Positions 44,939-45,627 of a stretch of 64,000 nucleotides of DNA are shown here, one piece after another; position 1 is the stretch's first letter, and every line of letters begins with the position of its first letter. The DNA is from Callorhinchus milii. Taxonomy: Eukaryota. A model generated the notes under the pieces. That model made no database searches. It saw nothing but the letters and a program-made list of their open reading frames with translations, and was not told the origin of the DNA. The position numbers and the translations under genes are program-made. The stretch is from assembly GCF_018977255.1 (NCBI RefSeq), contig NW_024704742.1, forward strand, positions 116,996,001 through 117,060,000, read 5' to 3'.

Positions 44939-45257
44939 AATAATAATAATAATAATCCTTGCATTTGATATAGCGCTTTTCACGTCTTCTCGACGTCTCA
45001 AAGCGCTTCACAGAATATGCTGTAAAATGAATTGACCGTATATTTGTGGGCTAAACGCAGCAGCCAATTGCACACAGCAGTGTCCCACAAACAGTCGTGG
45101 ATTGAAAATGACCAATTTATTATTGTTTTGTTTTGGAGGGATTATTATTAGACGTGTGGAGTAAGGAAACTTGCCCAAGGTTTCGCCCTGCCTGGAAATG
45201 AACCCAGGTGTCTCGCTTGCAAGGTGAGTGCTCTAACCACTGAGCTACAGGACTCCA
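44939..45257 (-). mobile_element. tRNA-Ala SINE, short form, full length
   Basis: Family match; abuts the RBM8A retrocopy in the same orientation. Confidence 0.93.
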
Positions 45258-45627
45258 GTTTCACCCGACACACATTCTTCTGAACACCACAGCAAACAAA
45301 TATCAAAAAAAAATAAAAAAAGAACCGGATTAATGTGAAATCGCAAATTTGGCAGAAAACACTTCGCCATTGCGGGAACTATTTTGTTGTAGGGTTGGTC
45401 AGGATCGATGGTTGAAGCGCCTGGTCTGGTCGCCTCTAGTGACGCTTTCTATCAGGACTCTGGCTTCTCCTGTGACCCAGCCTGCTGCTTTCTCTTGCTC
45501 TTGGGAGGCCCTCGGACGAAGCCCCAGTCTACGCTGGTCTGCTAGCTGGCAAGTCCCATGCCGTTCAGCCCCTCCATGGCCGCCTGTGCCTCCTTGTACG
45601 TTTCATATTCTACCAACGCATAACCTT
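45258..45627 (-). pseudogene. RBM8A: 5'-truncated processed pseudogene of RNA-binding protein 8A (Y14, exon junction complex)
   Basis: 45625->45436 translates [45 protein letters not shown], then after a frameshift SRLGHRRSQSPDRKRH*; matches the RBM8A C-terminus; premature TAG at 45544-45542; intronless; 45435-45258 is presumed 3' UTR. Confidence 0.92.

Follow-up and report, generated by a model that had tools for sequence, protein, structure and literature searches.

A candidate 5′ transduction of RBM8A mRNA by a SINE resident in its 3′ UTR in Callorhinchus milii

A 64,000-nt stretch of the Callorhinchus milii genome (G000:C1:116996001-117060000; hereafter the window) carries a processed RBM8A pseudogene whose 3′ UTR runs directly into a full-length SINE on the same strand, and a search of the 992-Mb genome reveals a second, dispersed RBM8A copy with the same junction. 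We propose that these elements arose by 5′ transduction from an RBM8A allele, since lost, that carried the SINE in its 3′ UTR, and not by a one-off template jump. We place the probability of this reading at roughly 0.65. Sequence comparisons for five genes (RBM8A, SACM1L, PPIL1, NSMCE3 and RAN) support the view that the route may be general in this genome, as had been suspected in an earlier note on the window that linked the RBM8A copy to a cargo at 7441-7994.

The window is rich in tRNA-head SINEs and in LINE fragments with reverse-transcriptase matches. Within it, the RBM8A copy occupies 45625-45258 on the minus strand and is spliced, 5′-truncated and joined to the SINE. It corresponds to exons 5 and 6 of a parent gene on contig C157 that has six exons; intron 5 of that parent (476 nt, GT-AG, C157:18601-18126) is missing from the copy, which is identified as RBM8A by an RRM_1 match and by top PDB matches to RNA-binding protein 8A. 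Exon 5 (45488..45625), which matches the parent exon and gives the RRM_1 and PDB hits, contains both of the lesions reported earlier, namely a nonsense codon (CAG>TAG, 45544-45542) and a +1 frameshift (about 45490). It is spliced to the coding part of exon 6 through the stop (45436..45487; stop codon at 45438-45436), and this is followed by 178 nt of 3′ UTR (45258..45435), all on the minus strand. The parent UTR continues for about 85 nt beyond the junction point to an AATAAA, and no poly(A) signal is seen upstream of the join. Introns are thus absent from copies of an intron-bearing gene, intron 5 from the window copy and all five from the second copy, as in a processed pseudogene. However, the window copy departs from the L1 type of processed pseudogene in that it ends in the (TTA)n of the SINE instead of poly(A).

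A 14-nt patch at 45628..45641 on the same strand probably derives from RBM8A exon 1 (13/14 match to the parent exon; 2/500 shuffles reach the score). If so, some 300 nt between exon 1 and exon 5 were skipped internally, and the template of the window copy was probably, although not certainly, a full-length mRNA. No target-site duplication was found around the window copy (500/500 shuffles as good). A short LINE tail fragment on the same strand (45735-45796), which lies about 90 nt further upstream than the RBM8A copy, seems to be a separate insertion.

No poly(A) is present where the UTR meets the SINE. The description of RBM8A with about 180 nt of UTR running into a same-strand SINE without poly(A) therefore holds, with the UTR at 178 nt, whereas the SINE enters at base 2 of its consensus and not at nucleotide 1 as first stated. 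If the SINE had inserted later into an ordinary retrocopy, parental UTR and a poly(A) remnant might resume behind it. Neither does so left of 44939: parent UTR was not found behind the SINE of the window copy (151/500 shuffles as good) or of the second copy (228/500), and no poly(A) follows the SINE in either. Furthermore, the RBM8A part of the window copy carries private changes at 11/363 sites (3.0%) and the SINE part differs from a 27-copy consensus at 10/306 (3.3%), so that the two parts, whose divergence the earlier note had proposed to compare, are of the same age. Equal ages and a junction common to two copies support the interpretation that cargo and SINE probably inserted as one unit, in keeping with the SINE-assisted retroposition originally proposed. 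The retention of many CpGs had also been taken to indicate a fairly young copy. There are 16 CpGs in the window copy versus 33 in the same stretch of the parent, where many of the extra ones were probably gained; age is therefore better taken from the 3.0% of private changes.

The SINE belongs to an A-type subfamily and extends over 44938..45257 on the minus strand. Its tRNA-derived head (45183..45254) is recognized by ARAGORN and by Rfam RF00005 (45.2 bits), its 3′ stem-loop lies at 44968..45011 (fold z = -3.35; 2/200 shuffles as good), and its (TTA)n terminal repeat is at 44938..44956. A LINE tail at window positions 6079-6150 has hairpin sequence in common with this stem-loop. The tRNA head, together with a stem-loop and repeat in common with a LINE, identifies a tRNA-derived SINE with the tail of a stringent LINE. 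A LINE in the window gives an RVT_1 match, and the appearance of its tail and ORF makes this partner a putative member of the L2 clade. An A-type SINE motif has 4864 matches in the genome at no more than one mismatch, compared with 0 for a control. The consensus starts with GTGGAG; the window SINE begins at base 2 of this sequence, as do 5 of the 24 copies inspected, and 12 of the 24 have the full GT start. Upstream of four unselected SINE heads in the window, young dispersed cargo was found in none (0/4; two flanks are unique and two are old repeats).

Several SINE copies are composite. The SINE of the second RBM8A copy (L002:1123-1300), L039 and L038 combine an A-type head with a B-type 3′ part, and the first two also have a second A-type tail after (TTA)n. 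Such a double tail occurs, besides this RBM8A copy, in 3/51 collected copies (2 distinct loci). On sequence grounds, the SINEs with mixed heads and tails look as though a younger SINE had primed within an older one and replaced part of it by homology. Other copies on C1, at 7.1 and 8.4-8.7 Mb, have common flanks or lie in tandem (L046-L048; L044/L045/L043; L037/L038) and are probably local duplications.

The second RBM8A copy (G000:C9:6204940-6205658) is near full-length, with all six exons spliced. It begins shortly ahead of the ATG, ends at the UTR base at which the window copy also ends, and continues there into the same base of the SINE. Neither in their flanks nor at their 5′ ends are the two copies related, and a segmental duplication is thereby ruled out. 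A junction pattern search returned six matches, only the two RBM8A copies being exact, while a control pattern returned five. The parent has six exons with GT-AG introns and, today, neither a SINE nor a scar at the junction site; its 3′ end adjoins a DnaJ gene at the CpG-rich start of the latter. A protein search with exon 4 returned only the parent and the C9 copy and thus gave no further RBM8A gene.

At 363 aligned sites, 35 differences from the parent are common to both copies; the window copy has 11 private changes, the C9 copy has 19, and 2 sites are three-way. Coding changes are synonymous in 7/8 common cases versus 4/17 private ones (Fisher p = 0.007). Because the common differences are mostly synonymous, the common template is indicated to have been a functional transcript that had by then been fused to the SINE, and not an old pseudogene. 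The parent has G/C at 26 of the common differences versus 6 the other way (p = 0.0005). SINE pieces show A/T-to-G/C changes at 0.105 on C157 (17 pieces) versus 0.037 on large contigs (109 pieces), and at one common site (L002:1713) the letter of the copies is present in the parent-type contig of 3/4 sequencing runs. Taken together, the GC bias, the SINEs of C157 and this site suggest that the common differences arose in today's parent after copying. C157 (L005, L006) itself has a strong local G+C shift, its SINE A/T-to-G/C rate being 2.8 times that of large contigs. In exons 1-4 the C9 copy and the parent differ by 8 synonymous versus 21 non-synonymous changes, indicating that parental divergence is uneven along the gene.

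The sequencing runs were also consulted. In three RNA-like runs, the abundant spliced RBM8A contig is of the C157 parent type, and pieces of the C9 copy, the window copy and the parent are all present in a DNA-like run. No third RBM8A copy or SINE-bearing allele was seen in these four runs, whose contigs speak to presence and not to absence. In run X8, a 79-nt contig lies over the junction with 24 letters on the SINE side, below the 31-letter minimum of the method, and is thus a hint and not a bridge.

For SACM1L the source is still in place. The cargo in the window comprises 553 nt of SACM1L 3′ UTR (7442..7994, minus strand), 99-100% identical to C2:37327884-37328438, and is followed by a B-type SINE (7110..7441, minus strand). 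The exon upstream of the C2 segment encodes SAC1 according to a protein search; neither ESM Atlas nor Pfam identified it. Six copies of the cargo at 99-100% (the source and five daughters, 99-554 nt in length) all end at one SINE junction. The C2 copy runs upstream into the last SACM1L exon and its SINE is flanked by an apparent 7-nt target duplication, features that identify it as the source; this resident SINE lies in the 3′ UTR, about 695 nt after the stop. In contrast to four uninterrupted LINE copies, the LINE reverse-transcriptase frame at the window site is interrupted by cargo and SINE together as a single unit; about 7 nt of the target have been deleted, and there is no duplication.

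Comparison of four daughters with the source gave 0 differences in 782 nt of cargo, versus 43 in the SINE parts (4 x 309 nt; p about 7e-10), and many of these SINE differences are variants seen in other SINE copies. The SINE of the daughters is therefore often not the resident one, and simple read-through is not the whole story. These mosaic SINEs could have formed either from cDNA begun on another SINE RNA with a jump guided by homology, or by later conversion; they hint at homology-guided jumps in addition to read-through. The mosaic SINE parts next to identical cargo in the daughters L024-L027, relative to L023, indicate that template switching or gene conversion is frequent among SINE copies. 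The daughter on C134 (L025:1380-1500) begins directly where the head of a different SINE stops, and its other end lies beside tRNA-like sequence.

Additional genes came from seven Pfam families (214 matches), from which five candidates were picked by long matches with stops before their 3′ flanks were seen. The candidates came from PF00160, PF00244, PF00210 and PF00071, a small sample in which only the best were scored; judged from the match lists only, PF00227, PF00179 and PF01248 (40, 54 and 14 matches, respectively) held no clear retrocopy. Two of the five, L075 and L076, were rejected as ordinary exons; the former (C8:1704100-1705700) is a 14-3-3 terminal exon with a splice acceptor and a one-base frameshift, which may be an assembly error or a recent null. 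The remaining three (ferritin, PPIL1 and RAN) are retrocopies, each with a same-strand SINE shortly after the stop; the background frequencies are 1.9% (within 60 nt) and 3.9% (within 120 nt).

Two of these three fit the route. The PPIL1 parent has a SINE piece in its UTR, and both of its spliced copies (2/2) end at the tail of that piece. Six RAN copies reach the stop, of which three have one clean common junction of UTR and SINE; of the others, one has a LINE tail piece at the junction, one is degenerate there and one is without the junction motif. No RAN parent was found, as a DNA search gave no gene with its exons in order, and the gene may be absent from the assembly. At least eight RAN-derived fragments are present (L074, L080-L084; C13:6960073, C8:8805379), and a match to the RAN motif on C30 was rejected as chance within a LINE fragment. 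In the ferritin copy, parental UTR resumes behind the SINE at 83% identity. This SINE is therefore a later insertion into an ordinary retrocopy, and the result establishes that the UTR-resumption test applied to RBM8A is able to succeed.

NSMCE3 has, about 210 nt beyond its stop, a SINE on the same strand. One of its three dispersed copies consists of 160 nt of UTR joined at the parental junction of UTR and SINE, the other two do not follow this pattern, and a fourth copy is a plain duplication that includes the flanks. The intronless NSMCE3 locus itself is present twice (L065:1983-2990 and L071, on C1 and C2) at 97.6-99% identity including flanks, as a recent duplication or an assembly duplicate. 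UFD1 carries no SINE of this kind. Retrocopies outside the route are those of ferritin, UFD1 and two of the three from NSMCE3.

The architecture common to these cases, one junction of cargo and element across independent insertions with variable 5′ ends (two copies for RBM8A, five daughters for SACM1L), leads us to the following model. A sense SINE would once have inserted into the RBM8A 3′ UTR, so that the spliced mRNA of that allele carried the LINE-type stem-loop and (TTA)n. A LINE reverse transcriptase that is normally restricted to its own tail would, as L2 biology suggests, have primed at (TTA)n and continued its copying across the SINE and on into the mRNA. Because copying starts at the SINE tail, everything downstream, including poly(A), would be dropped. 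Priming and copying would have occurred at least twice, yielding the near full-length C9 copy and the truncated window copy. In some events, as the mosaic SINEs suggest, priming may have taken place on free SINE RNA, with a subsequent homology jump onto the SINE embedded in the mRNA. In the eel element UnaL2, the available text reports that the 3′ tail is the sole cis element needed, that it works in trans and that priming occurs at the terminal repeat (PMC1636434), from which we derive the priming role of (TTA)n; zebrafish L2 proteins are likewise reported to bind their cognate stem-loop (PMC4176376).

The source locus with its SINE is present for SACM1L, PPIL1 and NSMCE3 and absent for RBM8A. 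Since the RBM8A parent is without a SINE today, the model demands a later loss of the allele that carried one, and the gene would have drifted towards G+C. Published passages on dog L1 transductions report that 24/27 are without an adjacent parent, 'parentless' being the rule (PMC13141329), and a lost source allele has been proposed for MAP3K13-L1 (PMC13174262). Given that absent sources are common in such systems, the missing RBM8A source is tolerable.

Other histories must be weighed against this model. The earlier note had favoured a lone jump from free SINE RNA onto SINE-free RBM8A mRNA, a scenario that is now disfavoured by the finding of two dispersed copies with a base-identical junction and by the three sister cases in which the source SINE sits in the 3′ UTR of the gene itself. 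It could be retained if two independent jumps had been steered from the SINE RNA 5′ end by TGGAG microhomology. Beyond the junction the parent reads CACCGGAG, and there (C/T)GGAG lines up with the start of the SINE if a gap of 3 nt is allowed; this possible five-base microhomology would also suit a template jump. The window and C9 SINEs have no private mutation in common, which fits a young common source and equally two different SINE RNAs, and the SINE mosaics reveal that the enzyme or the genome does swap SINE templates. However, (C/T)GGAG occurs at five other sites in the mRNA, two of them with a 6-base match, both copies begin at the same SINE base although only 5/24 copies start there, and retrocopies look scarce (3 among 5 fetched from 214 matches), such that repeated capture calls for a cause specific to the gene. 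We therefore regard two jumps as improbable. Hardly any better are the prospects of a single template switch or RNA ligation that joined SINE RNA to RBM8A mRNA, the chimera (perhaps the C9 copy) being transcribed and re-copied soon afterwards. It would give one junction without any lost allele, and it is favoured by exact C9 contigs in two RNA-like runs and by one CpG-type non-synonymous change common to both copies in exons 5-6. Those contigs are of low depth (2.6-2.8) and possibly DNA, however, and the window copy, with 0/19 of the C9-private changes, would have to date from the very start of the life of the C9 copy. Nor does a single switch anticipate that three sister genes hold the SINE in the parent itself.

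Less credible still is a source in a second functional RBM8A locus (a paralogue or retrogene) with a UTR SINE, now lost or unassembled. The common differences, at 9.6%, do exceed the private decay of 3.0% and 5.2%, but the GC shift on C157 accounts for the excess, and both the exon-4 search and the parent-type contig that dominates the RNA-like runs speak against another gene. Mechanistically, such a locus is still a source of 5′ transduction. We give almost no credence to an ordinary retrocopy that received its SINE later and was then duplicated at the DNA level. The ferritin copy demonstrates that later insertion occurs in this genome, yet both RBM8A copies are free of UTR and poly(A) behind the SINE, their two parts are of the same age, and their flanks and 5′ ends are unrelated; a deletion of the downstream UTR before duplication would be needed to rescue this history.

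The preferred reading, transduction from a lost SINE-bearing allele, bears on how retrocopies form where L1 is scarce. In the portions of the literature available to us, stringent elements such as CR1 are held to limit retrocopy formation (PMC5470649, PMC3747384), retrocopies of non-mammalian chordates are mainly credited to L1 (PMC3136929), and enzymes of the CR1/L2 type are regarded as incapable of copying host mRNAs (PMC3136929, PMC5470649). Tables in one of these sources list over 540 retrocopies in platypus against only 60 L1 copies (PMC3136929, PMC5470649). Within the mostly open-access literature consulted (including PMC7245038 and PMC11260458), we found no description of a UTR-resident SINE that allows a stringent LINE to retropose an mRNA, or of such SINE-tailed retrocopies in a chondrichthyan; an earlier account may exist. 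What our data suggest as new is that a SINE landing in the tail of a gene lets a choosy LINE enzyme paste that mRNA back into the genome. Because a tail of this kind suffices in the UnaL2 experiments as reported (PMC1636434), an mRNA with a sense UTR SINE would carry a licence for retroposition.

We extend this idea more tentatively, at somewhat less than even odds. Where stringent LINEs dominate a vertebrate genome, sense 3′ UTR SINEs could be a main gate for retrocopies and retrogenes, and where they land, even as brief alleles that are lost again, could set which genes are duplicated. The embedded SINE could also be a homology landing pad for free-SINE cDNA, and intronless NSMCE3 may have arisen in this way. 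The route could explain genomes poor in L1, such as that of platypus, with its retrocopies despite few L1 elements. A simple and testable rule follows, by which the 3′ end of a retrocopy should be a SINE tail and a sense UTR SINE should be found in the parent gene, or have been there once. If true, insertion of a SINE into a UTR would be a mutation that raises the rate at which a gene is itself duplicated, full coding sequences included.

Comparable events are known for other elements. Damert 2009 is said to be the reference for 5′ transduction by SVA, and Buzdin 2003 reportedly dealt with U6/L1 chimeras. The available texts treat 5′ transduction as established for SVA (PMC12593883) and for L1 (PMC13174262). 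As in our cases, SVA is a non-autonomous element that uses an upstream promoter and carries host sequence at its 5′ side, and its daughters form groups with common cargo that can be traced to a source element (PMC12593883). SVA differs in being a poly(A) element moved by L1, whereas the elements here have a tRNA head, a LINE-type stem-loop and a (TTA)n end; furthermore, the cargo here is a whole spliced mRNA that the enzyme is not expected to accept without the SINE. The mRNA/L1 chimeras, in the published sections available, resemble our copies in that spliced exons are joined in sense to a near full-length element, with one junction and independent insertions; the source is in place for RAP1GDS1-L1PA2 and missing for MAP3K13 and FHIT, for which a lost allele was proposed (PMC13174262). 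In those chimeras an L1 from an intron is linked to 5′ exons, in many cases at splice sites, and only first exons are carried (PMC13174262). In contrast, the join here falls in the UTR of the last exon, away from splice sites, and a full coding sequence can be included.

Chimeras of U6 and L1 formed by template switching or ligation are similarly described as cellular RNA 5′ of the element, on the same strand and without poly(A) between the two, but with the join at the natural RNA 3′ end and at variable positions in the element (PMC4476161, PMC6789731). RBM8A differs on both counts, because its join is off the natural 3′ end, inside the UTR about 85 nt before AATAAA and at the first bases of the SINE, and the junction is identical in both copies. 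Crocodilian SINEU-2 elements also form groups of copies with extra 5′ sequence, for which a template jump or 5′ transduction was proposed; the extensions are derived from snRNA or unassigned, and the accessible text names no protein-coding mRNA with an identified source gene (PMC4494074). Mechanistic parallels are also offered by the stringent LINE/SINE systems UnaL2/UnaSINE and ZfL2, which have a 3′ stem-loop and short terminal repeat in common and in which heterologous RNA bearing the tail is mobilized in trans (PMC1636434, PMC4176376). Those systems used engineered constructs, and natural host mRNAs with a UTR-resident SINE, which we propose as the templates in C. milii, are not described in the available parts of these reports.
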